This document shows positions 10,065 through 64,000 of a DNA stretch of 64,000 nt, in pieces. Source of the stretch: Marsupella aquatica (lineage: Eukaryota; Plantae; Marchantiophyta); NCBI GenBank assembly GCA_973895155.1, contig OZ316894.1:11067874-11131873 (forward strand), given 5' to 3'. A program made the position numbers and the translations under genes. Position 1 is the first letter of the stretch; the number at the start of each line of letters is the position of its first letter. Below the pieces are notes generated by a model. The model was not told where the DNA came from and did no database searches. It saw only the letters and a list, made by a program, of their open reading frames with translations.

Positions 10065-10076
10065 GCTCTGATACCA
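10065..10076 (-). other. Primer binding site, tRNA-iMet
   Basis: GCTCTGATACCA = reverse complement of TGGTATCAGAGC, 2 nt from the LTR. Confidence 0.92.
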
Positions 10077-10078
10077 CA

Positions 10079-20194: not shown

Positions 20195-20334
20195 GTAGAT
20201 TCACAGTCACACCCCACGCAGCAGGAAACAACAATCACTTCAACTGCGACCAACCATGACAAGATGAGTTAGTTCAAGGATCACATTTATTACAAAATTG
20301 TGATTTATACAAAAATATGAGGGACTCCTACTCC

Positions 20335-32561: not shown

Positions 32562-33242
32562 CTTTGAGCAAAGATGGCATTCACCTTGACAAGCCCATGA
32601 TCATCCAATGCAGAACTAGTCGACCTAGAGAGGTATGTGGTTCACCTTGGCTAATGTTGAGCAAAGACGACATTCACAACGGCTTGCCCATAGTCATCCA
32701 ATGATGAAGTAGTCAACATAGAGAGATGTATGTGGTTCACCTTCTCATGAGGCTATGTCCAACAGAACACACAAGAGCTTTACTACACGATAGGGCGACC
32801 AACCATACTGAACATCCACAACACAAGCTCTCCTTATCTCTCAATTGGCCCCGTAGCAATGAGCCTGAGTTCCTCCTAACCAAGGAAACACCGCTTGGGA
32901 TATAGAGTGTGCAAAGCATGACTAACCTAGTCTGTGACTAAGGTTAGCCCAAGTAACTATGGTAAAGTCGTAACTCATAGCTAAGGCCACATTTCTGGGA
33001 ACACATGAGAGCTTTCCTGCACTCTAGGCCAGCCGGCCATACCGGGTCTCCACAACACAAGTTCTCCCTATCTTTCAACTGGCGCGGTAACAATGAGCCT
33101 GAGTTCCCCCTATCCAAGCAAACATCATTTTCATTGGATATAGTGTGCAACCTAGTTAGCCTAACCTACTCTGCAACTAAGATCACCCCTAACTATGCAT
33201 GGTTACAATCATAACCCTAGACCTAAAAGTAAATGTCTAATA
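32562..33242 (-). mobile_element. Degenerate copia-type LTR with adjacent PBS-like site, interrupted by a second LTR
   Basis: Similar to the LTRs at 40335 and 63488; GCTCATATACCA (32548-32559) resembles an iMet PBS with 2 mismatches. Confidence 0.7.
32655..32979 (-). mobile_element. Solo LTR nested inside a related LTR
   Basis: TGTTGAGC...CTCATA flanked by the 5-bp TSD GCTAA (32650-32654 / 32980-32984). Confidence 0.78.
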
Positions 33243-33244
33243 AT

Positions 33245-34812: not shown

Positions 34813-37110
34813 TCCCTCCATACATTTAAGGTTGATCATTAGATTTTGGCTATTTTGAGTCAGGGTAAAACTATCCTTATAACTTTCTAAAATCTCCCTA
34901 CATATATTTAAGGGTGACCATTAGATTGTTGCTATTTTGAGTCAGAGTAACACAAATTTTTGTCTGTTTTCAGAATATTTCTTTCCCACGTTTGTTCAGA
35001 TTTTTAGTAAAAAATGGGTGATGTTGATTCTAAAGTAACACTATTTCATTCCAAGGAAAGTAACACTATTTCATGAGCGCGGAAATAGTGTTATGACAAT
35101 ATTTAGGTTGACTAACAGTAATTCATGTGTAGACGCTGAAAATTGGCACTCTCAAATTAGTGTTAGTCACATTAATTAAGGTGAAAAGTGTAGCTAATTT
35201 TTGTCAAATGTGGCCGACACTTTTCACAAGGGACTAAACTAGTTTTTGTCACAAGTGGCAACTACTTTTTCACACAAGTGGAATCTAGTGAATTTTAGCC
35301 ACTAAAAAAATAGCTGCTCTGAGTAACCTGTAGCGTACATTGTGTATCACTGAATAGCATTTCATATTTTTTGGAAATCCTAAGTACCGTCTGACCTCAT
35401 TAGTTCACCATAGGGGTTGATCTACTGCTCAAAACATAGATCTATCTGAGATATACTGCCACTAAGGTCCTAAAAAATAAACAATTCATATTTTCTCACA
35501 AATCACCAAAAATAGGGTAAGAGGGTCCTATGATGCAAAGTGAGAGGGAGAGGCTGGAGGGGATTTCTGTTCACCTTGGCAAATCAACTATGGTGGGTTA
35601 GACTAATTAAGCTGTGGTTTGTAAGATAAGATATATGAGGACAAAACAACCCTCGTTTCTACTTTGTTTAGAATCATATTTCTGACTGATTATGGTAACC
35701 TGGATCCACTAAATTTTGGTTGAGGTTAGTGGCAGTGTTTTATAACAATTGTAAATTAAAGAGCTGTAAGCTTGGACTGGATCTACATCCAAACCTTTGG
35801 TCTTATTGGCTTTCTAACCTTACATGGGATCTGCCGAGATGTGGAACTAGCATGCCTATCAAGTGAGAATTTTGACTTCATACGAAGGACATTTTGGGAT
35901 CCAATCCAAGTTAAATGTTCCAAGAGCCAACTTAATAGAGACATTGTGAGAGATGGAGATAGAAAAGGGGCACGGCCCATATGAACTTTTTCCATACCTT
36001 ACCTACACTTTTCTCAGTCTGATAATTTGCTTAATGTGCTTTTGTATCGTACCAATTTAGAAACAAAGTTGGTGAAGTTGCTTTGATCACAAATATGAAC
36101 AGTGGTGGAGACAACAATCAAGACCATGGTTGTGAAAAAGGACCTCCATCATGGCTCTCATTGTCCATGCCAAACACCCAAATAGAGGACTCGCTACTCT
36201 TTGTATGGCCCAGACTTTTGGTTTTAGAGCCACTAGTCAAATTCCTCTTCATGACCCTCTCTGCATTTTTTTCTCTGAAGCATTACCAAACTTTTCAGTT
36301 TGGTGCTCAGCAAGGCCTTAGTTCTGACATTATTGGGGACTCGTGGGATTTTTGGCTCTGTGGTTGTTCTGTTTCTTTCCCTTGTTTTCACCCCTTTTTA
36401 GGTCTTGCCTGTGGATCATGTCACCTAGTTAGGCACTTCTTATTCCTTGGGAGTTTGTTATATGTAAGAGATGTGTCCGAAGCTTACAATTATGTTTCTA
36501 AGAGGGCAGAGTGTGTGAAAAATTTATAAGAGTTGGGCTTAAACCTTACACTTATGTCCTGGGGGTCACTATATGGAGGGAAACGGTTTGGGTTATGTAT
36601 GACACCCCTTAGTTACTTTAAATGAAGTTGACACCAATCATGTGATCAATGACATCTATTATTGTGTAATTTAGATACCTTATATTTTCAATTAAAATTA
36701 GTTTAAAAAAATTCTCTAAAATGACTAAAATGACCCTGTACTTTGGTGCACATGATGTGGACCTGACCCCCCAAGCTTATGGCTCTAAGAGGGCAGAGTG
36801 AACTTATCAAAAAATCAAACAATACTTACATAATAGTGCATTAATTGGAATATGCACACCCAATGCTACTATTCAGGTGTTGGGTGACACCCGGCAACAA
36901 TGAAGGTCACGTCCTATTTGCACAATAGTTTGCAAATGTTGTTTAGCTTTTTGTGGATACTGGCAATGAAGCATTAACACTAGCGCACATACCGACTTCC
37001 TATACATGGTACCATTTCATATAAGATTTGAAAATATTTGTCTAGCTACCTTTCCATCTAAGGAGCGCAAAATTACCCCAAAAGCATGTTAGATCATTCA
37101 GTGAGACATG

Positions 37111-38047
37111 CCCCTAGCCCCCAAGGAGACACCACTTAACTCATATATGGTTCTGGAGACCTGCCACCCTAGACAAACTTTTCTCCCCTATAATTGGCCC
37201 TCAACTTGTACTCCAACCCGATCACATGGGCACGCAAAACATTTGCTACACCCATAACTTTCTAGTTAGATGCCCATAGGTGAAGTGCCTTAGCCCATTG
37301 TAATCGGACCGACCTGGGGCTCATGCTCAGATCCACAAAACCCATTATATTGTCAATCAAGGGTTCTGGATGGCTCCATCGGCGCCGCATTGTATCTCAT
37401 GTGCCAAATCTCCATTGCGCATGAACTAAACTTCTTTGGCCTTGGGCCCAAGAGTAGCTCTCACTCAAGCCCTCAAGACTTAAAGTTTGCTCGGGGGTTT
37501 GGACACCCCTTCTCATTGGGAGCTTGGCCCTTCACATTGGGAGCTTGGCCCTTCCGATGACCCAACCAGCTCCCAATGCTAGTCTAAGTCCTTACTGTCG
37601 GTGTGTCACCGGCTTAGCGTATTGTCTTTGCTAGTGCAACACTTCAATGCCCACTAGTATCCCCATACTTAGTCCCCACTGGACGTTTGGAGGCCTGAAC
37701 CATAGAGGAGCTCGGCATTAGAGTCAACAAGGTGGGAGCTAAGTGGTATGGTAGTCAAGTTCCGTGACTTGCACGCCCCCCCTCCCCCTTAAAAATGGTC
37801 AATGTCCGCGTGACCCAAGTATACGTTCCAACACACCTAGACCACTTTGGGTCTGAAAAACATTGTGAGGTAACAATTGGTTTGCCTATAAGGATGATGC
37901 AAACCAGGCTGGAGTGCGCATTCCAGACTTAGGAAATTCTAACCTAACTTATCCAAGGAGCTAGTCTGTGCGAGTAACCCAACTGAGTTAGCCGCGCTGG
38001 AGCTAAGTTGTAGGGAGCTAAGTGGTAGGGAGTCAAGTTTTGCGATT
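37111..38047 (-). mobile_element. Degenerate remnant of the 2881-11017 chromovirus family (partial LTR, PPT, 3' UTR)
   Basis: Collinear with about 3747-4560, including the LTR end TTCCGTGACT followed by TGCAC and a C-run at 37760-37790. Confidence 0.85.
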
Positions 38048-40334: not shown

Positions 40335-40681
40335 TGTAGAGCAAAGAAGACCTTCAGAATGACAAGCCCAAGAACCATCCAACACACAAGTAGTTGACAA
40401 CGAGAGATACATGGTTCACCTTAACTGCATGAGGCTACGTCCACAGGAACACTCGAGAGCTTTACAACACTCCAGGCCCATTGGCCATACCAAGTCTCGG
40501 CAATACAAGATCTCTCTATCTCTTAACTCACTCCGTAACAATGAGCCTGAGTTACTCTTATCCAAGCAAGCACTGCTTGGGATATAGTGTGTAGCCTAGT
40601 CAACCTAACCTAGTATGTGTCTACACTTAGCCTTAACTACAATTACAGTTGTAACCCTAGACTACGAGTAAATGCCTAACA
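40335..40681 (-). mobile_element. Solo LTR, copia-type
   Basis: TG...CA termini, 5-bp TSD AGAGG on both sides, homologous to 63488-63832. Confidence 0.9.
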
Positions 40682-40742
40682 AGAGGGAGATATAATGTTC
40701 AAAAATTAATCTAAGAAAATTATAAGGAAGGTTCAACATCTT

Positions 40743-41261: not shown

Positions 41262-42470
41262 ACTTGACTAATTATATATGGTAATCTAGATCACCAAGTT
41301 TTGCTTTAGGAATATTGGCAGTTTAAGCCACCACTGGCCCGCTATGGAAGGACAACAATGACAATTCTTTTCCATTGCTAACAACATTATTGACTAATGA
41401 TTGTAATATACGTCCACCAAGTTTTGCTTAGGGTACATGTAGAGTGAAAATTGTCTTATTTTCAAGCCGTCGAAGTAGACTGTAAAAGGGGAAACATTTT
41501 TGTCTGGTGTGGACCAATCCTACATGGCAAGCATTTGGCCCAAGTAACTGAAGTGGAGCGCTTATTTGCCTATGAGTTTAGACCACCACCTCCTGCGGTT
41601 CATCACAAACAATTCCAAACTTTGGCTCCTTCATTCAAGGGATTTGCATTTATTGAACTTCGTTCAAAATATCTTTGGTAAGGAGTCTATGTTTAGATTA
41701 AGAAGCGGCCCCACATGTTGCTCCACATGTTGCTTGGTGAAAAAAGTCCCCAAGAGTCTTGTAAAGACACCTTCAGGAGATAATGACAATTGTAATCACC
41801 AGTGTCCCTCAAGTTGTGGGAGGACAAGATAGACACTTTTTGCCCACCGTTAACTTTGTTAAGAACTTTATTGACTAATTATTGTAACCTAGAAGCATCA
41901 TTAGGGGCCGATTTTGGAGTTGAAGCCACCACTTTCCCTCTAGATATGGGAGGACGGAACAATCACTTTTTGCCCATTGTTTAGAACTTTATTGACTAAT
42001 TATTGTAACCTAGATCCACCAGGTTTTGCTGGGATAACAATAGCAGGTCAAACCACCATGGTCCCTAAAGCTATGGGGGGACAAAACACTCACTTTTGTC
42101 CACCTTTTTAATTTGGTAAGAACTTTATTGACTAGTTATTTTAACATAGATCCGCCAGGTTTTGCTTGGATGAAAATGGCACTTCAAACCACCATGGTCC
42201 ATGAAGCTCTTGAGACATCCATTTTTAGCCCACTTTTGTTGTTGTGAAGAACTTCTATTGACTAATTAGTGTTACCTAGATCCACCAAGTCTAGGAGACA
42301 CTGACAGTTCAAACCTCCACTATCCCTGACGCTGTTAGAGGGACCAGCTAAACACTTTTTGCACCCTTTTTACTTTGTCAAGAACTTCATTGACCAATGG
42401 GCTTCTTGTCCACTTTCTACTTTGTGAAGAACTTTATTGACTAATTAGGGTGACTTGGATCCACCAGGAG
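41262..42470. repeat. Degenerate tandem array, unit about 120-135 bp
   Basis: Core GAACTTTATTGACTAATTA..GTAACCTAGATCCACC recurs near 41264, 41390, 41863, 41983, 42120, 42249, 42381 and 42429. Confidence 0.8.
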
Positions 42471-45400: not shown

Positions 45401-46553
45401 CCACAACTGGTCAAAACTCAACTCTTGGGCAAACTTAACATGCCTTGGGGGGGGGGGGGGGTTTCAGTCCAGTTTTTTTGTTTGAGACAGGTCACAACAC
45501 TTGTTTGCAAGTTATCTAAGCATCATCAAATTTTGAAATCTAGTCATTTTTTAAGGGTGGTGGAGATTGTTGAAGAGTGATGATGCACTTGTATGGCCGA
45601 ATTTTTTGGTGCAAATGCTGGCGCACTAATTTCCCAAGTTAGTGGCCGTATAGATTTTTAAAAACCACACAATGTTTCCTGCAATGGGGCCTGCAACATT
45701 CCAATTGCGTAAAACATCCACAAAATACAAAGTTTGAGACAGCCTTATGTGATTGATTCTCATCCACCAGAATTCAGAGAAAGGAAAGGATGCGGCTCTC
45801 TCAATGTAGTGCCAAATGTACAATGTAGGGAGAACTTGATGACAGAGTATCACCAGTAAACAATTCACCCATATTCTGATTTGGTGGATTGTTGCGGTTT
45901 TTATTAATATTCCAATTTAAGTCACATCGCATTATCCAATCCCCAAACAATCAAATTAATGTGATTGGACCGAGATTGGACTTGTCCAATTGATCTAGTA
46001 TTGGAAGACGCATTTTGATTCAAAAGAAATGGCAAAAATGTTCTGATCATTTGAGAATGGCATAACCATTTCCAAGTATTTCCAGATCGGGAATAATTGT
46101 GCTATCGTGCTACTATTGGCCAAGGGGTCCCAATTAGAATCAAATTGGAAAATCATGAAAAAGTGAGCTTTCAAGAATTTACCCCAATGTGTAGGATCGA
46201 AACGGACAGCATGACGTCTCATAATCGTCAGTCATACAACACTCCGGTACACCGACACAAAGATACGTGGTTCACCCCATCTGGGCTACGTCCACGGCCG
46301 CACCAAGAGCTTCACTATGAACATGAAAAGTACATATCACCATAGCTCCATGGTCCAAGCTCTCTCTCTCTCTCTCTTTCTCACAAAGTTCTCAACTAAG
46401 TGTTCTCTCTCCATGGGACACCAAGAGGGTTATCCCTTCATGAAGAGTCTAGTCAACTAATATTAACTCTGGTTAACTAACTCTAGTTAACCTAGCCAAG
46501 GTTGAGTCAAAACCCTAACAAACTCCCCCTTGACTCTAGCCTTGAGCTAGCTG

Positions 46554-49500
46554 CTATCCTTCTGAAGCTAAGATCTGCAGTGAATTGCAATGTCTTGCAA
46601 AATCACCATGAGGGATAACCTTGGTTAACATGTCAGCTGGATTGAGTTTACCATCAATCTTGACTAGCTCAACCTTTCCTGCTGACACTGCCTCTCTGAT
46701 GAAGTGATACCGAATATCAATGTGTTTAACTCTGCCATGTGTCATTTGGTTGGCAGCAATGTGTAAAGCACTATTGTTATCACAATGGAGAAGCACAATG
46801 CGTTGTGTAATCCCTAAATCCTTCACCAAGTTGCTTAACCAAATTGCCTCCTTAGTTGCTTCAGCTGCTACCACATATTCAGCTTCAGTAGAAGACTGAG
46901 ATATGCATTTCTGCTTTGTGGACCTCCAACTCACACATCCACCCGCAAGAGTGAAAGTGTATCTTGAGGTGGACTTCTTCTGGTCCAAATCTCCTCCATA
47001 GTCAGAGTCCACATAGCCAATCAATGATTCTGCATCTTCACTGTGTGCATCAAACAACAGTCCAACAGTAGAGGTTCCCTGCAGATAACGTAGTATCCAC
47101 TTCACTGCTTCCCAATGTATATTTCCTAGATTAGCCATGTATCTGCTCACCAATCCAACAACATGTGCTATATCGGGCCTAGTATAAACCATAAGATACA
47201 TTAAACTGCCCACAGCACTATCATAGGAAACCTTAGACATATGACCTCTCTCAATTGCATCTGTGGGGCAGGATGCAGCTGAAAGCTTAAAATGTGACGC
47301 CAAAGGAGTACTCACAGACTTGGCGCTTGCCATATTGAACTTGGCAAGAACCTTATTAGTGTACTTACTTTGTGTCAACCACAATTTGCCATTTTGCCTA
47401 TCCCTATGAATCTCCATGCCCAATATGCACTTAGCAGCACCCAAATCTTTCATACTAAACTCAGAGCTCAATTGAGCTTTCAGCTTAGTAATGTCAGATT
47501 TATTCTTTGCTACTATGAGCATATCATCCACATAAAGAGCTAGCAAGATAAAACCAAAAGTTTTATCATTCACTCTCTTCATGTATAGACATCAGTCATG
47601 CACACTTTGAATAAATCCAAGTGACAATAGAAAGTCTTTGAACCTCTTATTCCACTATCTTGGACTCTGTTTCAATCCATACAAGGATTTTAACAGCTTG
47701 CATACCAGATGCTCCTTGCCTCTTTTGACATATCCTTCAGGCTGTCTCATGAAGATCACCTCTTCCAGCAAACCATATAGGAAAGCTGTAACAACATCCA
47801 TCTGTTCCAAGCAGAGATAAAAAATAACCATAAGTGCCATGAGTAAGCGAAGGGTAGCTTGTGTGATCATTGGAGAGAAGACATCACTATAGTCCACACC
47901 TTTGCGTTGTGTAAAACCCTTGGCAACCAGCCTTGCCTTGTAAATCTTCTCCTCATGATCACTACCTTCTTTTTTCACCTTATACACCCACTTGCAATCA
48001 ATTGCTTGCTTTCCTTGAGGCAGCTCTTCTAGTTGTCACGTCTTGTTGTCATAGAGTGACTTCATTTCCTTATTCATGGTGGCAATCCATTCTGGCTTCT
48101 CAAGGGAAGCCATGGCCTCTGAATAAGTGGACGGTTCTCCATCCTCAATGATCAACACATTCCCAGAATCGTCAGCATCTTCATCATCAATATCTATGTG
48201 ATCAGATGGAAACCAAGTTCCAAATTGTGTAGGCTCCTTGTGAGGTCTTGATGAAGATCTCCTTGATGATTTTGGCACTTCAGCAATTGGTTCTGATGTT
48301 GCTGGTACTGGTGTTGGCGCTGACACTGGTTCATGAGCATATTCATGCTCAATCCTGTCAACATTTGGAGTTTCCACCATTTTCTCCCCCTCTTTCAATG
48401 AGGAAACCTCATTGAATGAGACATCGATGCCGACTACCAGCTTTTGTGCCAAAGGGTCCCATAGGCGATACCCTTTCACTCCTTTCTCATAACCAAGAAA
48501 TATGCACTGCACAGACTTTGGATCAAGTTTAGTGCGTGATATTGGAGGCAAGAGAGCATATGCCTCATAACCAAACACACGTAGTTTGGTATAATCAGCA
48601 GGTCTTTGGTGCCACATCTCAAAAGGAGTCTTACAACCAATGCTGCTAACTGGAGATAAAGTTAGCAAATAAGCTATCGTATTAACAGCTTCAGCCTAGA
48701 AGATCTATGGAAGATCTGCTTGACTTAACATACTCCGCGAGTGCTCCAACAAGGTTTTGTTGAGCCATTCTACAACACCATTTTGTTGTGGAGTATACAC
48801 ATTGGTCAAATGTCGAGTAATGCCTTCATGCTCACAATAGAGGTTGAACTCGTTGGAAATATACTCACCACCATTGTCTGAGCGGAGATACTTCACCTTC
48901 TTTCTCGTTTGTGTCTCAACCTGTGTTTTCCACAGTTTCTTGAAGATTGGAAATACCTCTGACTTCTCACGCATGAAATAAATCCAAATCATGTGTGAAT
49001 AGTCATCAATAAATGAGACATAGTATTTCATGCCTGAAATGGAAAAAACTGGGGATTCCCACACATCAGAATGAATATAATCGAGTATATCTTTGGAGGT
49101 ATGATGAACAATGTTAAAACTTACACGATGCATGCTGCTTGCCAAGAATACAATGCTGGCAAAATTCCAGCTTGCAAGACTTTGCACCGGGCAAGAGTTT
49201 CTGCTTACATAGCATCGCCAATCCTTGTTCACTCATGTGACCTAGTCGTGCATGCCACAAGCGTATCTGGTCCTCCTCTGATGAAACCACATTAACATTG
49301 CCAAGGATGGTGTCTCCATCCAAGATATATAAATTTCCCTTCTTTTGGGCTTTCATGACATTGAGAGATCCCTTCTTCACTTGCAAAATGCCATCAACTG
49401 TACTCCACTAACATCTAATAGTGTCCAAAGCTCCAAGAGAAATCAAATTCCTTTTGAGATGAGGAATATGTTTGACATTTGTTAACATTCAAAGAACGCC

Positions 49501-50481
49501 ATCAGACATCTGAATTTTTACTGTACCCGTGTCAATTATCTAGCAGGGTTGATCATTCCCCATCAAGACACTTCCGGTAGTGGATTCATAGGAATGAAAA
49601 AAAGCTCTTGTCGGAGTCATGTGATAAGAACAAGCAGAATCCAAAATCCAATCAAGTTCATGCACGATAGAAGAATCGGTGCACAAAGCAAATCCTTCAT
49701 CATCAGACACAGCCAAACTAGCCTGATAAAAAGCAATCTTTGGTTTGTTTTTGCAATTCCTTTTGATGTGGCCTATCTTGCCACAATTCCAATACTCCAC
49801 ACCTTTTGAATCCAAAATCTTGGATCGAGAGCGTTGAGGAATTGATATTTTTGGTTTAAATTGACTCTTTGTTACTGATAAAGTAGAAGAGGAAGCATGA
49901 GAGGTTACATGCATTTTCTTCCTACTATCATCCGTAAGAAGAGTGCTCACCGTCTCATCATAGGAAATCTGATCCTTACCATAGAGTATGGTCTGAGTCA
50001 AATGCTCGTACGATTTGGACAAGGAGATAAGAAGAAACAAAGCTTTCTTCTCGTCTTCAACTTTTTTATCGAGAGTGGCCAACTCGGACACTATCAAGTT
50101 AAAGGTATCAATATGATCGGCAAGTTTTGTACCTTCCATCATGTGCAGTGTCATCAACTTCAAAGTAGTGTATAAGAGAGTTGCCAAGAATTTCTTTTGG
50201 TACATCTGTTTGAGTCGTTCCCACAGCTTTGTCGGTGAATCCTCAGTCAACACTTGGAGTAGAACATCAGATGCCAAGTGCAACCGGATTAAGCTGAGAG
50301 CTCGTGCACAGATGTCCTCCCAATCCTCCTCAAACATTGCCGATGGTTGACTTTTCAATGCTGCGCCCAAACCTTGCGAAACTAACACGTCTTGCATTTG
50401 AACTTGCCATAGCGTAAAATTATTGTGGCCGGTAAACTTCTCCACCTCATATTTGGCACTAGTAACTTTTGATGGAGCCAT
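46554..50481 (-). pseudogene. copia gag-PR-INT-RT-RH polyprotein with stops and frameshifts
   Basis: KYEVEKFTGHNNFTLW; WNCGKIGHIKRNC; WILDSACSYHM; LWHARLGHMSE; RSDNGGEY; [10 protein letters not shown]; LYVDDML; SSTEAEY; KHIDIRYHFIRE. Confidence 0.95.
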
Positions 50482-51785
50482 TGTACACCCCTAGGACCTT
50501 GAAGTGCCAAAAATCACTTTGCAGCTTCTCAATTTCACGCAAATTTGCACAACAGCACATGGCAGCACGACAACATCAACCACAAAATGACAAAAAATGA
50601 AAGTTGCTGAAATTGAAATCCAAGAGCACTCCTGGGTACCCTAGAAGGTATCGGATTTTGTCCCAAAATCCGTTTGGCAAAAACATCTCAGTTGAGATAT
50701 TTTTACCGCCGAGTAAGAGGGGGTCAAAACATCAAAATTGGACCCCCGAGGAGAATCAATTCACTCAAATCCGCAAGAAAAGTCGGTTTGACAAATAGTT
50801 TGCACAAGCCCCTACTCAACTCCCTCAAGTATGCCCTTGCAAAATATTGTGTTGATACAACATCGAATGATTTGCCGAAATTTTGATTCCGTCGCAAAAA
50901 TGAGCTTGCTGGAAAAGTATATTTTCCTTAAATTCCTGCAACCCTTGTACAGGCCTTGTGGGAAATTTTTCAGAGCTGCCCAAGGGCTGCCACGTGCCCT
51001 CTTGGCCCCCTCGAACCCCCTATCACCCCCCTTGACCCTTTTTTCGCGTCTGCGCGCCATCCCGGGCGAGTAAATACTCGTGACAGACTTTTCCCCCGGT
51101 GGGATATCTAAGATATCTTTTTGGGGTTTTAACAAAAAGAAAAACTGATTTCAGATTCTGAAACTAGACTTCAAGGCGCTTCAAATCGATATAAAGAACT
51201 CTGAAAACGGTGAAGAATTGAGGGAGATAGAATTCAATTAAGATCACTGATTTTGACCTAGCCACCATAGCCGGGAATTTCGAGCTCAACTCAATCCAAG
51301 AGTTCTTCGTGACAACTCAATGAAACACATTGATTTCTTCACCACCACATTCCATAGCAACACCACTCGCACCAACTTTCCTTCAACGATCATGAATGTC
51401 TTACAAGAAACCAAAATCATATCACGGAAGCCACGTTCCCCTCGGTAATCAAGTCGAGACCTCAAAAACCGTCAAAAAACCGTCTTATATAAAGATTAAA
51501 ATTGCTCAGCCATATGTGAACAATCTCTCGACTAAACATGCAAGTTTCTACTCCATAAACCTCCTTATCCGATCACCACTTTGTATGTCAACGTTCACAC
51601 TTCCATCGTGCCCCCAAAAATTGTCAATCAATCACAATAAACCGTTAAGACATCAGTTGATCCCGAACCGAAGCTCTGATACCAATTGTAGGATCGAAAC
51701 GGACAGCATGACGTCTCATAATCGTCAGTCATAGAACACTCCGGTACACCGACACAAAAATACATGGTTCACCCCATCTGGGCTA

Positions 51786-52114
51786 TGTCACACCATTTAG
51801 AGTGGTAGTAAAGTATATCGTACTATCTAGGTATAGAGGTTTTGTATGTGTGCTACATGAGCACTATGTTTAGTTTGAGTTGGTGTGAGGGATAGTTATC
51901 CCCTTGTGTTGGCTCAAAGGCCTCATCTTTCAATGTTGAGCCTTTGAGCATGAGCTTGGTGGCTATGGTGTAGCTGACCAGGTTGTGTACATGTAACGTG
52001 GATTCCTTGAAGCACAAGGTGCGTTGGGCTTGACATACATGTGTGATCGCGTCGGATGGGATCGTTGTTGGATTAGCATCGATCGTTGTTTGATTTGCAC
52101 TATTGAAGAAGATT
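51786..52114 (+). repeat. Terminal repeat A1 (329 bp)
   Basis: Near-identical to 60699-61027. Confidence 0.92.
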
Positions 52115-52777
52115 ACATTGAAAGATCAGCTTCGAATTCTGATGTACGGATCGTGCAAACAGAAGTTTGATTTCGTTGAGGTTTAGTTGTTGACGATTCG
52201 TGGTATCTCGGATTGGGTTTTGTTGTTGAACGGATCGCTGGTATCTCGATCTGTTACAAGTTGGTGTTGAGAAAGCTCGAGTGGATGCGGAGCTTTGAGT
52301 TGTTGAGTTGCGCGTTTGGAGTTGCGATTTGCATCGATCGACATTGCAGCATTTTGGAGGACTGAATGTGCGGTTGATGATCGGAAGTTGCCATCGATTG
52401 TTATGCGCGGATTGCTAAGAGTATTCGCTGCGGTTTTGTGAAGGCAAGTTGGTCGGACTTGTGATTGTTTGTGATTCTGGTTGGGGATGGTTCCAATCGG
52501 GGGTTGATAGTTGAAGTTGTATCTTGCGGATTTGAGATTTGTCAAGCTTAATGTTGACGGATAGTGCATTTCTTTGAAGAAAGCGACATTGGATGTTGAC
52601 GAATTGTGTCCCCTATGGCGACGTAGCGCACCGCGGAGAGGCGACGTAGTGCACCGCGGAGAGGCGAGGTGCAGCGATGACCTAGGGCACAAGGAAAACG
52701 ACAAAGTGAGTGAACAGTGACTTTGTCCGGGAATTGCGACGGGGTTTTCGCAGCAATAGGGTTGTGAAGGTCTTCCA

Positions 52778-53254
52778 CGGAACATTGTTCCGTTGAGAGG
52801 GCATATTGGAGATTGGTTGACTGCGGAACACCGTTCCATCGTGGTAGTTTTGGGAAGATTGGTCTTCCACGGAACACTGTTCTGTTGTGAGTGCATATTG
52901 GAGAACGATCGGGTACAGATTACCATTTTGTTGTGATAATTTTGGGAAGATTGGTCTTCCACGGAACACTGTTCCGTCGTGGGTGCATATTGAAGATTGG
53001 TCTGCCCCATTACACGTCTCATCTGCGTTGTGAAGAAGGGTTGGTTGCGGAACATTGTCCCGCAACTAGGCAGCTCACGGAACACTGTTCCGCCAATTAG
53101 CTTGGCTATTGGTGATGGAGGGTTGCAGAACATTGTCCCGCAACTAAGCAGTTTACGGAACACCGTTCCGTCAATTGTCTTGGAGATTGGTGGTGGTGCA
53201 TTACGGAACATCGTTCCGCGATTGAGTGATGGGTATCCGCGGAACACCGTTTCA
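52778..53254. repeat. Array of about 10 copies of the 15-bp palindrome CGGAACA-Y-TGTTCCG in the 5' leader
   Basis: Copies start near 52778, 52824, 52870, 52962, 53048, 53078, 53126, 53156, 53204 and 53240. Confidence 0.88.
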
Positions 53255-53287
53255 CCAATCGGTTGATTATTGATAGTGGTGAGTTGA

Positions 53288-56118
53288 TGGTGACCATTTA
53301 GGGAAAATTGGTCATCACGGAGTCCTCTGGTGATACGGGGCTACCCGAGGGACGACGGTCTGGTTTCACTCGAAGTGGAGTGCAATTTTGGCCGACGACA
53401 TTGTTAGTGGTTACAAGTGGGGTTTCAGATAGTGATTCTGATGAGGACTTAGTAGCCAGTTCTCCTCAACATCAAGTGACTGTGCCATTGTTGTGGGATA
53501 TGGAAGAGATGTATGGGGCCACGAAAGGACCGAGGAGATACTCTGGTGCAGTTGGCACGATTGATTTGGATGATTTCATCCAAGAGTTTGATACGTGGTG
53601 TGATATGCAGACAATGCGTAATGCCACATTGTTCACACCTTTTATGGCTTGGAAAGGGTTGTTTCAGCATTTGGAGGGGCCACCCATCGATGACTACCAT
53701 GAGTTTTGAAAGGCTCATTTAGTGGATATTGAGGCATGGAGACAGCATTGGTCACCAAACTATGTGTCCATCACTTATGGCACAAGTGCGGTTGCCCAAC
53801 CCATTGCTACAACTGCGGCTTCTTCTAGCAGCACTAGCTAGAGTGGCACTCCATCAACATCCACCGCTACTCCTACCGGTGTGATTGTGGCTGGGAGTGG
53901 AGCTGCGCCAACATTTAACCCTGTGATGAAGTTCTTTGAAGTATTGAAGCAGAACTACCAGGGTTTGAGAACCGATAAGTTGAAGGGTCTTCAGGAGTTC
54001 CAGCGCAAGACTAGAGAGAGCCTACGTGAGGCATACACTCGTATGCGAAGGTTGATTATGGTCACACAAGGAGTGACAGAGGCCCAAGCGGTCCAATTTT
54101 GGTATGCAATTCTGGATAGGGAGTTGCATCGTAGAGTGAGAGATGCCACTCTATTGAGGGATTCAGATCCCACATTGGCTATAGTTTTTGCACTTGCTGA
54201 GCGCATTGAGCTCAATATGGTGAATGAGATGGTGGTGACTTCCAGATTTGGCAAGGAAGCACCAAAGGTTGCATCAACGCCCACACCGCAACCTACTGCA
54301 CGTAAGAGCCAGAGAGAGAAGCCTACAACACGGGAATCTACTAGTCAAAGACATGTGCCTTCTTATGCTGGACAACAGTCAGGATGTTGGACTTGTGGTG
54401 GGGATCATGCACAAAGATATTGCCCGGATAATAGGGGGCAAGGAGGGGCATCTACACTTGATCAACGATAGTGTGATCATTGTGGAGTTTTTGGACACAC
54501 CAAAGATAGGTGTTTTGTACTTCATCCTGAACTACGACGGGGAGGACCACGTGCGTATGATCAGGGAAGAGGAGGTAGAGGTGGTGGACGTGGTCGAGGC
54601 ATGCCACATGCAGGAAGACAGGGAGGTGATGTTGCTCCTACCATTACCACAGATCCTAAGGATGCAAAGATTGCTCAATTGGAGTAACAACTAGCTGCAA
54701 TGGCTAGTTCTCAAGTTAGACCTACTGCTAGTGATGGAGCTTCTACATCCTATGGAGCTTCAACCTCTTATGGAGCTGATGAAGATCTTGCCACCATGGG
54801 ATTTATGTGTGGCACTGCGCATGTGAATGCATCAGCAGCTTTAACTCGAGGAGCAGCAAAAGCCCTTGAGCCTAGAGGAGCAGTGGTAGAGTTGGATCCT
54901 CAGAGAGGGGATATTCGTCATCAAACGAAGCTTCCCCAATCGTTTACATTGTTAGAGGTAGTTCAAACTACCTCTATGAATCCGGTTCGGACTAACCCAG
55001 GTGGGGGTAAGTTGGCGGATTCAAGTGATGTTGTGACAGGGATGACAAGTACCATGTTGGGGGCGGCCACTACTATACTGCGCATGCCATTATTTTCAGC
55101 TACGGATATGTTAACATTGGGAGTTAGTCCAGCAGAGGTGTTCAGATTGGCGGCCACATTATGCGAGGACACTCCAGCTGTTGCTTCGCGTGCAGAAGCA
55201 ACGCCCAATTCTGAAGCAGTGGAGTTGAATCCACCTATTGCCAGTAATGAAACATGGCATGCAGCAGCGGCAAGGTTGATAGATTTACCAGCGCGCCCTG
55301 CTTATGAGAGGACTAGGTTTAAACCTAGCGTCATATCATTGGATAATCGGAGTGGTATCTTCCGATTAGTTGGGCCTTCTGGAGCAATATACCAGCCAGA
55401 GCGAGTGTTACTAGATATTGGTGCTCAGCCCTTGATGTTGGGTAAGTCTGCAATAAGAGGATTAGGATTGCGTCCTGATGATTTGGAGTGTCCCTTTCCC
55501 ATTCAGACTTCATTGGGAGGACCTACACCCACACAGCATATCACTCGACAAGCACTTGAACTTAGGATTCAGGAGGATCATTCAAAGGATAACTCACGGA
55601 TCCAAGCTCGAGCTATTTTGACTAAGGCTGAGTCATATGATGTCTTGGTGGGATATACAGTTCTCTATCCTATGGGATTTGTTCTTGATTTTTGGAATGA
55701 ATCGGTGTCATATCGATCCGATTGGCAATCTGGAGATGCTCGATTGAGCCAATTGCCAGTGCGATTTAGTGGACCTATTGGAGGCCCCAAATTTGCACCA
55801 TTATCTTTGGCAGCATTTAGTAGTTTGATTACTGGAGTTGATGATTTGATTGAGGGTAACGCACATGCAGCAAATGTTCCTATGGTGGAGGAGACACATG
55901 AGGAACACTTGATGCATGGATTGCCCATTGATAGTGTTGTGACACCAGTATGGGGTACTGGACAGGCCTTGCCACAAAGTGCGCCCCGATTGATACATGA
56001 TGCATGGCGTCATACTTTTACACCGCAATCAGGAGCAGAGCAGTCAACTGCAAATGGACCGGTGACTCTTTCACCACTGGATACTACTCCTATTGCATGG
56101 CAATATCCACATGAGGGT
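53288..56118 (+). pseudogene. gag (two zinc knuckles) and aspartic protease region
   Basis: QKTRES-like gag motif (FQRKTRESLREAY); CWTCGGDHAQRYC and CDHCGVFGHTKDRC; VLLDIGAQ (degenerate D[ST]G) and YDVLVG; several in-frame stops. Confidence 0.82.
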
Positions 56119-57080
56119 ATTTGTTTGTTGGATTTATTTGGTGGAATTAGCACTGGATTGGCTGCCATTCTTCAAGCCGGCATTCCTGTGCGCCGTTATT
56201 TGTATGTGGAGACTGATGAGACAGCACGTAGAGTCTCATTACGTCATGTGGCATTGTTGGTCAAACGTTACCCACAATTGTTGCCCGTGGATGCCGTTCG
56301 TGGTTATCAACATGCATTGCCAGCTGATATTTCATTGTTGGGGGCGGATCATCTGGATCGCGTTGGCCCCATTGATTTGGTGATTGCGGGTTGGCCATGT
56401 CAGGGTCAATCTAGAGCTGGAGTTGGACATGGACTTCATGATCCAAGATCTGCATTGTTTTGGGAGATGTTACGGGTGTTGCATCATCTTCAGTTGCATC
56501 AGACACATTCCCTTGCCTACATTTTGGAGAATGTGCCATTATTGGGTGATGATCGTCATTGACTTGTTGCCAGCGTTCATCAGGTTACTTAAGTTTTGGA
56601 TTGGACCTGCTGTGTTATTGGATGCTGCACGTGTGGGTTCTCGTGCACATCGTCCACGCTTGTGGTGGACTAATTTGTTACCTTGTGAGGTGTTGAAGCG
56701 AGCATTTGATAGCATTCCTCACTCAGCAACCTTGGTGGTGGATGATATTTTGGATCCAGGGCGTCGTGCACAAGGTGTGATCCAGCCTGACAGACCTCCA
56801 TTGGCAGTGGTCAATGTAGTTGGTCGCCCACGTTGTGCATTACCCACTTTTGTGAGTCATTCTGCTTCATATGCATTCAGAATAGGTGGGCCTGGACTTG
56901 TCTGGGATACAACTCTACAGCAGTTAGTGGAACCTACTGCTGATGAAAGAGAGCGTGCTATGGGATTTTTGACTGGCACTACTGCGGTTGCCTCTGTGTC
57001 AGAGAGTTCATGCCGCCAAGTCCTTGGTCAAGCCATGGATTTGAATTGCTTGACTTGGATTATCAGCTTGGGATTAGCTG
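56119..57080 (+). pseudogene. DNA (cytosine-5)-methyltransferase domain, DNMT3-like, embedded in pol (one stop, one frameshift)
   Basis: Motif I LDLFGGISTG; II YVETD; IV DLVIAGWPCQG; V RSALF; VI ILENV; VIII SRAHRPRLWWTNL; IX ERERAMGF; X RQVLGQAMD. Confidence 0.92.
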
Positions 57081-57329
57081 AACAATTGCGGATGCGCTCT
57101 TTTGGTGTTACTGATCGTCCATTGGTGAGCTTGCGGTCTACTAAGACAGTAACGACCACAGTTGGGGGTGAGCAGACAGTCCATGGACCTATGGCAGGAT
57201 TGGCCAAGGTAGGACAGATTGTTGAGCAGGTTGGGACTGCTCAAATTGTTGCTAAATAGCAACCACCGACTATCTCTTCAACCCCAAAGGAAGACATCAC
57301 AGCTTTGATGGAGAGTTGGGAGCCACAAA

Positions 57330-60300
57330 TTGGCCCTAAGTTGACAGGGGATGAGAGACGTCGAATGCATCAATTCTTGAAGAGTTACTGGAATTGTTTT
57401 GCATTTAGCATGAAGGATTTGGGAACATTGAAGGGCCCTGGTATTCAGATTGAATTGGCTAGTGATGCGCCAATCTTTTGACGACCATATCGATATAGTG
57501 ATATGGAGAGGGCATTGATCCGGAGTAGAACTTAGGATTTGTTGGAAGCTGGTTTGGTGGAGATTTCATACGGAGAGTATGCATCTGCCACAGTGATGCC
57601 AGCCAAGAAGGATGTGCATGGCAATTACACGGATAGGCGAATGTGCGGTGATTATCGACCTATTAATCGTCAGACAAAATCTGATCGATATGCCATGCCC
57701 ACACCGGAGGAGATCTTTGATGCAGTGGGGCATGCAAGGATTTTTAGGTCGTTGGATCTCAGGGCGGGGTACCATCAGTTGCCAATTAGGCATTCTGACA
57801 AGTCCAAGACAACATTCTAGGGGATTGATTCTTATGGCAAAGATCGTTTGTATCAGTGGTTGTTCTTACCATTTGGGTTGAAGAATGCACCAGCTGAGTT
57901 CCAGAGAGTCATGGATCGAATCCTTGCAGGTTTGGATTTTGTCAGATGTTATATTGATGATATTTTGGTTTATTCTTCTACTGTGGAAGAACATCAGAGA
58001 CATTTGCAAATTGTGTTTGAGAGATTGAGGGAACATGGATTGAAGCTCCATCCCGGCAAGTGTAAGTTCTTTCAAGAGAAGATTGAGTATTTGGGCCACA
58101 CTATCTACCTAGGAGGATTGGGTGTGCAACAGACTAAGGTGGAGGCCATTACATAGATTCCTCGTCCTACTAATGTGAGCAGAGTTCGTGCATTCTTGGG
58201 ATTGGCGAGCTACTATAGGAGGTATGTTAAAGGATTTAGCCAGCTTGCTAAACCTTTAACTATACTCACTAAGTTGGATCAGGAGTGGATTTGGGGAGAC
58301 GACCAGGAGCATGCTTTCCAAGAGTTGAAGGAAAGACTGGCGTCAACACCTATTTTGAGAAGACCCATTTCAGGGTGACCATTTCAGCTTCACACTGATT
58401 GGAGTGGAGTAGGACTTGGAGCAGTGTTGACTCAGAAGGATGATGAGGGGAATGAGTTTGTTGTGGCGTATGCCAGTAGATCCAACAATTCAGCAGAGGC
58501 TAAGTATAGCTCTTATGAGGGAGAGTGTTTGGCAGCAGTGTGGGCTGTGGCACATTTCCGTTGCTATTTGTTTGGTAATTTGTTCACCTTGATCACTGAT
58601 CATCAACCTCTCAAGTGGTTAATGGAGTCTGACAAGCTTAGAGGGAAGCTTGCACGATGGGCATTGTTGTTGCAGGAGTATGATTTTCAGGTTGTGCATA
58701 GACCTGGAAAAGTGAATTTGGATGCGGATGGGTTGAGCCGCAATCCATGTACCAGTCAAGAGGATGAGACTGGAGCTCGATGGCATGATGAGACAGATAA
58801 GGAGATGGTGTCAGGATGGCATGCATCTGCTTTCCTTTGTTGGGTGCCAGCATGCAGTGGATCCGTACACTTTACTTCATTGGATGGAGTAGATGATGAG
58901 TCTTCAGATATGGATGTTGGTGATGTAGTTTTTGGACAGCAAGATATTCACAACGATGTGAGAGTGTTGGAATATTTGCATGGTGGCTCCATTGGTGGCA
59001 ATGTTGATGCTAAGGAGCGTGATAGGGTTCTACAACAAGCCAAGAGATTTCAATGGCAAGGAAACCATCTTTTGAGGGTACTACGTGATGGGAAGGTGTT
59101 GGTTGTACCAAAACCGTCACAACGAGTACATTTGGTGCGACATGCGCACGAAGAGTTAGGGCACTTTGGTGTAAAGCGCACTTATAGCTTGCTGCAGACA
59201 CAGTATTGGTGGCGTGGTATGCACACTGATGTCCAACAATTGATAGCTAAGTGTGTGGTTTGTGATCGAGTGCGAGCATCGTTCAATGCTAGATCTCCCC
59301 AGTTGCATCCGCTACCGATCATGGGTTTGGGATATCGATGGAGTTTGGACTTTGTTGGTCCATTGCCTCTTATCCAACGTCACAATCGGTATGTTTTGGT
59401 TATGGTGGAGCACTTCTCCAAATGGATTGAACTAGTGGCATTGCCAGATAAAGCTAGTGGAGGAGTGGCTACCATATTTTTGGATCGAGTACTCAATCAC
59501 TTTGGAGCACCAGCTGAGGTGTTGACTGATTAGGGCACGGAATTCCGTGGAGATTTTGAGGGTTTGTGTGAGCAAGCTCTGATTGATCATCGTACTACTT
59601 CTCGCGATCATCTTGAGGCAGATGGATTGGCAGAGAGAGTTGTACAAACTGTGAAGAGAGGATTGCGTAAGTATGGCTTGCAGGTTAGTCATTTGGGAGA
59701 CTGGGATCTTCAACTACCTTGGTTAGCTATGGGCTACCGTTTTAGTAGACAAGCATCACTTGCATCCTTTTCACCTTATTTCTTGCTCTATGGTAGAGAA
59801 CCAGATTTGCCAGCGGCTATTCGTCGTGATGTTGAAACTGTTGTGGATTTGGATGATCCAGATGTTTGGGTCAAGGTTTGTTCAGACAGGGCACGAGTTT
59901 TTGAGAGAGTCATGCCCATGGCCTTTGACAACCTTGCTATTGCCCAACATCGTGATACTTTGCGGTATGCTACTATTCGTGGAGGAGGTTATCGCACGAG
60001 GATTAGAAGATTTTATCCTGGCGATTATGTTTATTTGCAGCAGACAGCACCAACGACGCTTGATGTGACCGCAGGGCGGACAATCTTACGTGTGCGTGAA
60101 GTGTTGCCTTCTGGAGTCCTTATATTGGAAGGACGTGATGGTATGGTTTGGAAGGATCATGTGCGTAATTGTGCGCCATGTCATCTTCCAAACATTGATG
60201 GTACTGTGGATCCAAGCTTGGCACATGTTCGTGCTGGCTTGAAGTGTATATTGTGTGGGTCTGCTCAAGGAGCAGCTACTATGTTGATTTGTGATCGGTG

Positions 60301-60385
60301 TTCTAGAGGATGGCACATGTCGTGTTTGACACCACCCTTGCACATGATTCCTAGTGGATCATGGTTGTGTCCTCAATGTCGGTGA
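57330..60385 (+). pseudogene. RT, RNase H, integrase and C-terminal PHD finger
   Basis: RMCGDYRPIN, PFGLKNAP, YIDD; LHTDWS, SSYEGECLA, TDHQPL; HAHEELGH...CVVC, SLDFVG, DGLAERVV; PHD CILC...CDRC...H..C...WLCPQC. Confidence 0.94.
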
Positions 60386-60570
60386 TGCCGACTAGTTATC
60401 ATTCGTGTTCTCATGGAAGATATAGATTGCAGGTAGGTGATCGATGGGGCTCACTTGCACCCGGCCTCCTGATCTTCACACCTAAAAAGGTGTATATCAA
60501 CCTTGTAGAACTCATGGCTAGCTAGAGTTAGGGGACCTCACTTCCAGCTAGGGGGGCGATTGTGGGTTTT

Positions 60571-61153
60571 GGGCATGTATGGACATGGGTTCCATTTGTA
60601 GATCATTCTCTTAGGTTTGTGTCGTTAGATTGTGACTATGTTTGGATATGTGTGACAAACGATGTATGTTGTGTAGCGATGTGTATGTGCACGACAGCTA
60701 TCACACCATTTAGAGTGGTAGTAAAGTATATCATACTATCTAGGTATAGAGGTTTTGTATGTGTGCTACATGAGCACTATGTTTAGTTTGAGTTGGTGTG
60801 AGGGATAGTTATCCCCTTGTGTTGGCTCAAAGGCCTCATCTTTCAAAGTTGAGCCTTTGAGCATGAGCTTGGTGGCTATGGTGTGGCTGACCAGGTTGTG
60901 TGCATGTAACGTGGATTCCTTGAAGCACAAGGTGCGTTGGGCTTGACATACATGTGTGATCGCGTCGGATGGGATCATTGTTGGATTAGCACCGATCGTT
61001 GTTCGATTTGCACTATTGAAGAAGATTGGGTATGTATGAACATGGGTTCCATTTGTAGATCATTCTCTTAGGTTTGTGTCGTTAGATTGTGACTATGCTT
61101 GGATATGTGTGACAAGCGATGTATGTTGTGTAGCGATGTGTATGCGCACGACA
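60571..61153 (+). repeat. 3' repeat block B1 (60571-60696) - GC - A2 (60699-61027) - B2 (61028-61153)
   Basis: B1 and B2 are near-identical 126-bp repeats ending GCACGACA; A2 matches A1; purine run AGGGGGGCGA at 60550-60559 lies upstream. Confidence 0.9.
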
Positions 61154-63487
61154 GCTACGTCCACAGCCGCACCAAGAGCTTCACTATGAACACGAAAAGT
61201 ATATATCACCATAGCTCCATGGTCCAAGCTCTCTCTCTCTCTCTCTTTCTCACAAAGTTCTCAACTAAGTGTTCGCTCTCCATGGGACACCAAGAGGGTT
61301 ATCCCTTCATGAAGAGTCTAGTCAACTAATGTTAACTCTGGTTAACTTACTCTAGTTAATCTAGCCAAGGTTGAGTCGAAACCCTAACACAATGTTGCCC
61401 CCTGATCCTGGTCCTCCATGGTTGCATGACACCATTCAAGGTAACTAGTGTGTTAGTGAATTGTTTGGTTTTTGTATGAAGCTGGTTGTGGTCGCCCATC
61501 CCAAATGCTACTTCTTTCACCGTGTGCTTAACTTGCTAGTTCTTAGCTCTTGCATTGTACATGTAATCTTAGCCACATTTGATGTTTCTTATATAGTGTC
61601 TTGGGTTTTGAGTTCATTTAGAACCATAGTTTGGACCCATTCTTGATAGATTATTATGCATCATGACATTGGATTAATTCTTGCATGGCCTATTATCAAG
61701 GATCTATGCTGATCCGTATGCCTTGATCCGTATCAGGAAGGACCTTGGCCTTGGCACGGGCCTTGGCAAAGGTTCCAATTCAAAATGAGTTGCAAACACG
61801 CTTACAATAACAAAAGAATTGGACCACCAGGTCCGTTTCACCAACAATCAGACCAAGATCCCATTCTATCTGGATTGCAAATATGAATTCCATTTCCTAG
61901 CACTAGGAAACAATTGTCCAATCTTGCAAAACTTGGAATATATTACCAATCACTTTTGTCACGAAGACACCTTTTTGCTTAATTTCCCATTGCTCAACAA
62001 AAGATCCAATTCAATCCACATTGAAAACTTCCAATTTGTGTTGAATGGCAACATACGATTATAATTTGATTGGAAACACCTGCTTAAGCTTTTCTTTGGA
62101 AAGGGGTCTTCGATTCAATCAGGATCGGAGAAGAATTGGACCAAGCAATCCAATTGTTTTTGGCCTGGACAAGCAATCCAACATTTTGTAAATGACAATG
62201 ATGGTTTGTTTGTGATTGGGTTGGAATGGTGATAGGACTCCAATTGTAATTTAATGGCAAAGTCCAAGACGCGTTAAATTGGACGGTCAGGTCGTACATC
62301 CAATTATAATAGAATCATAAATCTTGGCATAATTGGAAGATGAGGATTGGACCAAGCCCCAAAATGTACTAGTGTATTCCACTGACCATGTAGAATCAGA
62401 TCAATGCTTTAGAGAAATTGTGCTTACCATGTGTTTTGATTTGTGTATCACCAAATGTAACAAATCACCAAAGGTCTTGTCCACTACAATTCTTTATTTG
62501 ATAGCTATCTTGCAAATGTGCCTCAAGCGGGGCCTCAAATTCAATCCCACCAAGTTGAATTCTGAATAGAATGTCCATTCAAGTCAACCATTTTCTACTA
62601 ACATGTCCCCCAATCGATTGTAATTTGGTCTTGAATTTGGCACATAATTACCTAGAGTTTGGTAAATGTTTTTGTGTATTTTTGTGGATGTAGCCTTTGG
62701 TGAGGTGAATCACTTATATCTTGTATAAACTACTTGTGTGTTTGTTGTATGTTGCACATGTGCATGTTGTCTTTGAGTAACAATCATTTACTCAACAACT
62801 TTGTGATTCAATTAATAAATTAGTTTTTGAGAAATATAGTGCAAGCTCGGATTTTGTGAATAGTGAGTGATGAGCGATCATGACATCTCACAAGGAAAGG
62901 GGGGGTTTGGCTATGGTGGAGTAAACACAGATGTCCCATATTCCACATAGTGTCATCCCTGCCAAATTCTCCTAGCCAAGAGCTATACGAAGGAGCTGGC
63001 CCATAGGGAACCCAACCTGAGTCTTGGTGAGTTGACAACTCTTAGGGTAATATTTTTAATCACACATTCTTGGGCTCAATTTACTTTAAATGTGTGATTC
63101 AATGCTCTACATATGTTAGGCTGTGTTTCTAGCTAACCTATTTACTTCTATAGTACTAGTTAGGCTTCAGTAGACTAGGATAGCACGTGGTTGAATTCAA
63201 GGCTCCCAATAGACTATGGGAGAGGGCATAGGCAAGGGAAATACAAACTTGTGCGCACACATGAAGATTCATTCTCTAGAAGCTAAAAGTGAGAGGGTGA
63301 GAGGAGGCTGGAGCTCTAGCACATTGGCGGTGGCGGGTGTAAATTTTGTTTTATATTATTGGATTCTCTCATGACCGTGGATGCCTAGACGCAGTGAGAG
63401 ATGTGCTTTCAATGCTGTTATTTAAATGGATGTTGTTCATATGTGTTGGCGCTGCCTTGTTTGGTCTAGATTATTTCCCAACAATTT

Positions 63488-64000
63488 TGTTGAGCATAGA
63501 CGACATTCGCAACTGCAAGCCCATGAACCATCCAACGCACAAGAGTTGACACAGAGAGATACGTGGTTCACCTCCACATGAGGCTACGTCCACGGGAACA
63601 CACAAGAGCTTTACTGCACTCTAGGCCGATCGGCGATACCAAGCATCCACAACGCAAGCTCTCCCTATCTCTCAACTAGCTCCGTAACAATGAGCCTAAG
63701 TTCCACTAGGGGCTGGCACCAGCCCTTGCAATATACACAATAGCACTACCGCTAACCTTAGCTAAGTCCTAACGCAAGTTAACCTAACTGTGGTTAGCTC
63801 ATGAGTCACAAGACTAAGAGCAATACCTAACAAAATCCCCCTTGACTCTTGTCTTGGGGATTGGACTAATTGCTACCATATGGAATCCTCAGTGGGAAGT
63901 TTTAGACAATCACCTAAACAGGTCTCCCCCTAAAAACCACAAGGGTTAACTAGAACTAAGCCGTAGCCAAACTAGAATGAGGAATCCATATACAAATAGT
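63488..64000 (-). mobile_element. 3' LTR (63488-63832), PPT and 3' UTR of another copia-type element running off the window
   Basis: TG...CA repeat homologous to the solo LTRs at 32655 and 40335; AAATCCCCCTTGAC (PPT, minus strand) follows. Confidence 0.82.

Follow-up and report, generated by a model that had tools for sequence, protein, structure and literature searches.

The role of methyltransferases carried by retrotransposons has been a standing question since 2018. The closest described system is KnitGypsy-Dnmt3 of Klebsormidium nitens, a Gypsy element with an intronless, unpermuted Dnmt3-like domain under purifying selection and with repeats in the DIRS-like order A-coding-B-A-B (de Mendoza et al. 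2018, PMC5890265). Its authors proposed self-methylation of the cDNA, and the Klebsormidium enzyme, previously the Gypsy enzyme known from one alga, was inactive in yeast, where it left the DNA unmethylated; they term this result inconclusive. SymbioDIRS-Dnmt3 of the dinoflagellate Symbiodinium combines a Dnmt3-like domain with the same repeat order, encodes a tyrosine recombinase, and was shown to methylate CG de novo (PMC5890265). EpiLTRs are LTR elements that unite a DNMT with a chromatin reader; their DNMT is, however, DNMT4-related, they carry DAM and a chromodomain, and they have been declared distinct from streptophyte Gypsy-DNMT3 (bioRxiv 10.64898/2026.05.21.726589). Among chromoviruses, Tf1/sushi and Tcn1 are self-priming, with a primer-binding site (PBS) complementary to the 5' end of their RNA, and in Tj1, gag and pol are separated by a stop; they are described with ordinary terminal LTRs, a chromodomain as the typical integrase appendage, and no DNMT (PMC6317226, PMC4600332).

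We analyzed a stretch of 64 kb from Marsupella aquatica, referred to here as the window, which contains a decayed Ty3/gypsy element at positions 51786 to 61153 (plus strand, as are all of its features) with the domain order gag-PR-DNMT-RT-RH-IN-PHD. The element has (i) the gag-PR-RT-RH-IN order and DDE integrase of Ty3/gypsy elements, (ii) TG...CA ends, starting with TGTCA and finishing with ACGACA, and (iii) a 4-bp target site duplication (TSD), GCTA, at 51782 to 51785 and 61154 to 61157. In place of two complete terminal LTRs, its repeats are arranged as A-coding-B-A-B. The insertion is nested in one LTR of a Copia element, and the empty site is visible in the other Copia LTR (46184 to 46520), which holds a single GCTA. 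The Copia element itself occupies 46184 to 51785 and 61154 to 61389 on the minus strand, and its LTRs are ~3.5% diverged; the repeats of the Gypsy element differ from one another by ~3%. Zinc-knuckle-like motifs mark gag (53500 to 54687), which matches PF03732 weakly (E 0.06) and has four premature stops. The aspartic protease (55300 to 55749) matches PF13650 below the cut-off (E 0.019) and is 44 to 60% identical to metagenome loci. Reverse transcriptase and RNase H (57401 to 58747; PF00078, PF17917), also with premature stops, are followed by the H2C2 zinc finger and core of the DDE integrase (59132 to 59812; PF17921, PF00665) and by a PHD finger at the integrase C terminus (60239 to 60385; PF00628, E 7.3e-11), after which the frame stops. 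The 5' leader contains degenerate 46/92- and 78-bp tandem repeats (52769 to 53219). We regard the identity and anatomy of the element as near certain.

The element is thus real and conserved, its DNMT is integral, and it represents a variant, in land plants, of the type found in Klebsormidium, with a different ORF layout: KnitGypsy-Dnmt3 was described with RT, RNase H, and the DNMT together in one Pol ORF (PMC5890265), whereas a conserved stop precedes RT here. The DNMT halves are 35 to 50% and RT is 41 to 47% identical to K. nitens sequences. In the text of the KnitGypsy-Dnmt3 paper, which has no occurrence of "phd", we found no mention of a PHD finger, self-priming, a TSD, or a land-plant copy (PMC5890265). 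SymbioDIRS-Dnmt3 differs by its tyrosine recombinase and dinoflagellate host, whereas the window's element has a DDE integrase and a 4-bp TSD; a Pfam search of the element returned no tyrosine recombinase, the enzyme that, with the lack of a DDE integrase, defines DIRS, PAT, and Ngaro elements. Nor did Pfam detect a chromodomain on the integrase, which bears the PHD finger instead. A preliminary description, made from the window's sequence, had reported the methyltransferase; the stop at 57257 to 57259 between DNMT and RT, the PHD finger, the TSD, and the split arrangement of the repeats go beyond it. Its statement that the copy is dead, with a stop at 56560 to 56562 and a frameshift near 56590, was borne out, since we counted 11 premature stops and one frameshift in total, in addition to the stop at 57257.

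The DNMT3-like domain

The domain spans 56119 to 57097 and contains the motifs of a C5 cytosine methyltransferase from I to X in unpermuted order. In a six-frame reading, motif I runs from 56119 (LFGG at 56134), the catalytic Pro-Cys of motif IV lies at 56395 to 56400, and the ENV of motif VI is at 56527, whereas HRPRLWWTN, ERERAMGF, and LGQAM (motifs VIII to X) are all in the RT frame. This agrees with the preliminary description in place, order, and division between the protease and RT frames; the ORF it had given as ending at 56562 extends from stop to stop over 54688 to 56562, with its first Met at 54700. The search with PF00145 that it had called for gave a match in the protease frame (E 2.2e-9, 37.6 bits against a cut-off of 22) covering the N-terminal half of the domain. 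The C-terminal half alone had no Pfam match; it shares 87% identity with P0001, an intact relative, and 70 to 73% with three full-length liverwort proteins. Among PDB sequences, DNMT3A matches P0001 best (E 3.6e-11). The fold comparison rests on a second relative, P0002, whose predicted structure (pLDDT 92) has DNMT3A/B/C as top matches (E 5e-19), the model of P0001 (pLDDT 41, built with 24 close rows) being too poor for use. The domain is DNMT3-like, unpermuted, intronless, and integral to the element, as had been proposed.

Among 74 aligned metagenome loci, the catalytic Cys is retained in 72, the Pro in 73, and the three residues of ENV in 71, 73, and 72, respectively; in 54 diverse proteins, the Cys is the sole invariant column. 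A purely DNA-binding or structural role without catalysis, for which the inactivity of the Klebsormidium relative in yeast might speak, is hard to reconcile with this retention of Pro-Cys and ENV in 71 to 73 of 74 decayed copies and with the invariant Cys, and we consider it very improbable. The median dN/dS between the window and the metagenome loci was 0.20 for the N-terminal half (74 pairs) and 0.12 for the C-terminal half (46 of 47 unsaturated), as compared with 0.10 for RT, 0.19 for the protease, and 0.41 for the PHD finger, all at dS values near saturation (1.2 to 2.6). Inside the decayed moss-type family, the ratio for the DNMT (0.55 to 0.66) was higher than that for RT (0.45). Judged by these ratios, which are below 1 as the preliminary description had expected, the domain is under purifying selection.

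Host plant DNMT3s carry DUF3444 (PMC6453930). A Pfam search of the element DNMT proteins found no DUF3444, and the domain thus lacks the C-terminal DUF3444 and the stand-alone gene of a host DNMT3. The idea that the window's copy alone captured a host DNMT3 gene is refuted by the conserved position of the domain, both across 80 loci from metagenomes and in proteins of named liverworts and mosses, together with the dN/dS values; the missing DUF3444 also argues against it, and we give it practically no weight. CpG depletion was considered as a sign of self-methylation and dropped, since the observed/expected ratio of the element (0.50) is no lower than that of its neighbors in the window (0.32 to 0.84).

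Distribution of the family

With the N-terminal half as query, 55 relatives were retrieved among 2407 candidates. The named ones are from Marchantia polymorpha, Calypogeia fissa, and two Sphagnum species (at most 78% identity), and one further protein is 90% identical. A metagenome scan added 143 relatives, from which 80 loci were kept (63 clusters at 97% identity); because their linker matches that of the Sphagnum fallax protein P0047, we term these loci moss-type. The DNMT was matched in all 80 loci, with the same flanking domains wherever contigs reach, save for deletions in some, and the Marchantia, Calypogeia, and Sphagnum proteins also hold it at this position. A profile search yielded 433 clusters at E values up to 1e-30. 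The named organisms among thirty relatives that were looked up are Klebsormidium, Closterium, Mesostigma, and Scenedesmus. A search of IMG/VR returned one distant methyltransferase only. The family thus spans liverworts, mosses, and green algae and is abundant in mosses and liverworts.

The position of the DNMT varied among 177 RT-bearing proteins. It lies between RH and IN in 79 and before RT in one ORF in 21; another 66 begin just before RT without a DNMT, and 11 have a long N terminus without a DNMT. Proteins of the order RT-RH-DNMT-IN-PHD (P0213, P0246, P0137, P0162, and others) form a large sister group. Those of its members that have a name are chlorophytes (Scenedesmus), and the code Chrzof1 attached to P0246 is taken here to mean Chromochloris. 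The domain has therefore moved within the polyprotein. We found no paper on the RT-RH-DNMT-IN-PHD group in the literature searched.

In a FastTree phylogeny of RT-RH (143 rows), the window grouped with Calypogeia and the moss-type loci (support 0.99), while deeper branches were weakly supported. A clade of 48 rows (0.89) held three K. nitens Pol proteins, a fourth falling outside. A quick DNMT tree, midpoint rooted and with P0001 representing the window, contained a clade of 50 rows (SH-aLRT 96) that includes K. nitens P0209. The PR-DNMT and Pol proteins of K. nitens appear to fall in the same broad clades as the window's family in these trees, which were built from element proteins only and in which the K. 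nitens proteins may differ from the published KnitGypsy copies. Two more divergent DNMT-bearing Gypsy remnants (~40% identity) lie in L046 (700 to 5500, minus strand, and 18515 to 19547). The complete RT-RH-IN-PHD ORF P0314, whose RT is 67% identical, comes from a transcript assembly (EukProt TRINITY); a relative of the element is thus expressed in some species.

The preliminary description knew of no land-plant example. We also found no paper on a land-plant DNMT-Gypsy in the literature searched, but relatives do exist in land plants, and the supplementary trees of PMC5890265, PMC12344493, and bioRxiv 10.64898/2026.05.21.726589, two of which use the term "streptophytes," may hold bryophyte copies. 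In Marchantia, the Gag-PR-DNMT frames Mp4g09160 and Mp8g17980 are intact and have been annotated as genes of hypothetical status; the text available from the Marchantia methylome paper counts five DNA methyltransferases and leaves DNMT3 unmentioned (PMC5784723). Since the repeats are split, programs that search for a pair of terminal LTRs would likely overlook such elements, and inventories of bryophyte DNMTs may omit them. The role of such enzymes becomes testable because the intact frames sit in Marchantia, a model with methylomes and gene editing.

Repeats, priming, and ends

Repeat A1 (51786 to 52114; putative 3' part of U3 plus R-U5) is 98% identical to A2 (60699 to 61027). B1 (60559 to 60696; putative 5' part of U3) and B2 (61028 to 61153), which is without the first 12 nt of B1, both end in ACGACA. 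A polypurine tract (60547 to 60558) abuts B1. The 12 bases immediately after A1 (52115 to 52126) are the predicted PBS and are an exact complement of 51925 to 51936, the predicted self-primer and putative RNA 5' end, whereas control windows had a mean match of 5.7 and a maximum of 8. An exact match of at least 10 nt was found in 15 of 23 loci (control means near 6), at the expected register in 10, shifted along the same duplex in 3, and at a second site in 2; the complement is present in two subfamilies with different sequences. We therefore predict self-priming of the kind known from Tf1/sushi and Tcn1.

Together, the predicted self-priming site and the polypurine tract point to a reverse-transcribed LTR of B+A, with the ends used by the integrase in its middle. 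We infer that the cDNA is B-A...B-A, made by the standard LTR mechanism, and that its ends are without TG...CA, which lies at the B|A palindrome. In the window, this B1|A2 junction (60693 to 60702) is a near-palindrome, perfect in L004 and L020 (GACAGCTGTC), and is the predicted integrase attachment site. According to our proposal, the A-coding-B-A-B order arises because the cDNA ends are joined and the upstream palindrome is cut. Foamy virus provides a precedent, since its DDE integrase cleaves internal palindromic 2-LTR circle junctions; there, the palindrome derives from joined cDNA ends, whereas here it is encoded mid-LTR (PMC1180852). The A-coding-B-A-B order was seen in five metagenome loci, and the 4-bp TSD was exact in 7 of the 8 scored elements having both ends. 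GCTA as a fixed recombination core was rejected, as TSDs vary (CATA, TGTT, TTCA, ATTA, CACA, and TGTG) and the internal spacer has two bases. A more distant PHD-bearing Gypsy family (L015, 18060 to 18730; integrase 51% identical) has the order PPT-B-A-B with the junction TGACA-NN-TGTCA.

An alternative, which differs in the mechanism of the ends only, is a PAT/DIRS-like replication in which transcription covers the whole A-coding-B-A-B unit, the A2|B2 junction is copied from a template, and a circle is closed by pairing of B2 with B1. The repeat order matches that of DIRS-type elements (PMC5890265), the junction of A2 with B2 is precise (identical in L020, L044, and L046, with one substitution in L060), and such a route would explain why B-A-B is always 3'. 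The preferred route, by contrast, leaves this bias unexplained, since a symmetric circle predicts an A-B-A-coding-B form too, and 5' ends with B-A numbered 0 of 25. Against the alternative stand a conserved polypurine tract that abuts B1 and a co-varying PBS that abuts A1, as well as the DDE integrase, the 4-bp TSDs, the absence of a Pfam match to a tyrosine recombinase, and the junction variants, namely, the 12-nt loss in the window and the PBS-derived bases at the A|B junction of the rearranged insertion L031/L057. We consider it distinctly unlikely and retain the joining of linear cDNA ends.

Polypurine-preceded B repeats (n = 18) run into the flank in 12 cases, into A in 5, and into the contig end in 1. 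Single-B forms are thus commoner but may be secondary: L036 (one B) and L060 (B-A-B) share a common 3' flank and have bodies that are 91% identical, so that recombination or assembly collapse can yield the single-B form. Based on this comparison, single-B forms were dropped as proof of one-LTR-circle integration. Other copies have inverted or scrambled ends (L014, 7057 to 10481; L048, 6343 to 9757; L031; and L057), with the 3' end inverted in place of A1 or with internal inversions and an intact TSD; they resemble products of auto-integration or template switching.

A conserved stop and the proposed role of the enzyme

The preliminary description had inferred an integral PR-MTase-RT domain. 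The domain is integral, but the data do not support a continuous polyprotein: a conserved in-frame TAG followed by CAA CCA (57257 to 57265) marks the ORF1/pol boundary and a predicted readthrough site. Of 49 DNMT-to-RT rows, 13 were frameshifted, and a homologous stop codon was present in all 36 in-frame linkers. Upstream of 50 RT starts, TAG or TAA followed by CAAC was found in 46; the remaining four comprised one unrelated TGA and three without a match, one of them TAG TAG CCA. Random decay of the linker is excluded by these numbers, as the most-stopped column within coding domains reached only 23 to 38%. Marchantia, Calypogeia, and metagenome proteins terminate 98 to 120 amino acids past the DNMT domain, and because intact proteins end at the stop, ORF1 is Gag-PR-DNMT. 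The DNMT thus closes ORF1. This layout is not shared by all relatives, since the 21 proteins mentioned above hold DNMT and RT in one ORF; conversely, one K. nitens pair of neighboring gene models (P0209 and P0341) also looks split, as far as gene models tell.

Production of Pol probably depends on readthrough of this stop. The window's TAG CAA CCA fits the readthrough consensus CAR-YYA (PMC2194720), as do otherwise 2 of 50 rows in the strict form, while the common moss-type CAA CCC (43 of 50 rows) departs from it at the sixth base. Re-initiation or splicing is possible instead because of this prevalent CAA CCC and because the next codon in moss-type copies is ATG; in Tca2, a comparable stop reportedly gave no readthrough in yeast. 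We found no paper on readthrough or self-priming in the DNMT-Gypsy family in the literature searched. Given the stop after the methyltransferase, most product would be Gag-PR-DNMT, and if readthrough operates, each particle would contain more DNMT than RT or integrase. The stop thus predicts enzyme-rich particles.

We favor, with a probability of roughly 60%, the reading that the ORF1-terminal DNMT probably enters the particle in numbers close to those of Gag and probably methylates the cDNA of its own element ahead of integration. The cycle might proceed as follows. (i) The RNA would start inside A1, and its first 12 bases would prime reverse transcription at the PBS. (ii) Ribosomes would make mostly Gag-PR-DNMT, with occasional readthrough of the TAG giving the full polyprotein. 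(iii) RT would make the linear cDNA B-A...B-A, whose joined ends would create the A|B junction. (iv) The DNMT would methylate the cDNA in the particle or preintegration complex, so that it would arrive marked like host repeat DNA. (v) The integrase, tethered to nucleosomes by the PHD finger, would open the upstream LTR at its central palindrome and insert A-coding-B-A-B. As the DNMT lies between RH and IN in the 79 other proteins, it has been retained at two sites, each of which gives it access to the cDNA.

The enzyme might instead act after integration on host chromatin (the target site, flanks, or competing elements), guided by the PHD finger. The PHD finger is retained across the clade, the enzyme adjoins the integrase in the RT-RH-DNMT-IN-PHD group, and an ORF1 product made in quantity could work in trans. 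In the window's branch, however, the conserved stop parts the DNMT from IN-PHD, and the protease would probably cut the DNMT out. We judge this action on chromatin to be unlikely, though not negligibly so, and prefer methylation of the cDNA. A wider scheme is speculative: a green-plant-wide Gypsy lineage with a permuted route, a DNMT3 at Gag level, cDNA methylation as part of the cycle, possible shielding of the downstream palindrome, which would confine cutting to the upstream one, and a bryophyte methylome gain. Taken as a whole, we regard it as doubtful.

The window contains further repeats. A CACTA transposase (15598 to 22491, minus strand; PF02992, with DUF4218-type neighbors) is adjacent to BRCT and NSD-like PHD ORFs, which are perhaps cargo. 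Another Gypsy element (2881 to 11017, minus strand) has two LTRs that differ by an insertion of ~550 bp, and its CpG depletion is slight (0.84); a related LTR is located at 37110 to 37960. We also observed a LINE-like ORF1 remnant (28755 to 31157, minus strand), a degenerate tandem array of ~130 bp (41312 to 42466), and a dispersed repeat family at 32564 to 33243, 40335 to 40682, and 63488 to 63741.
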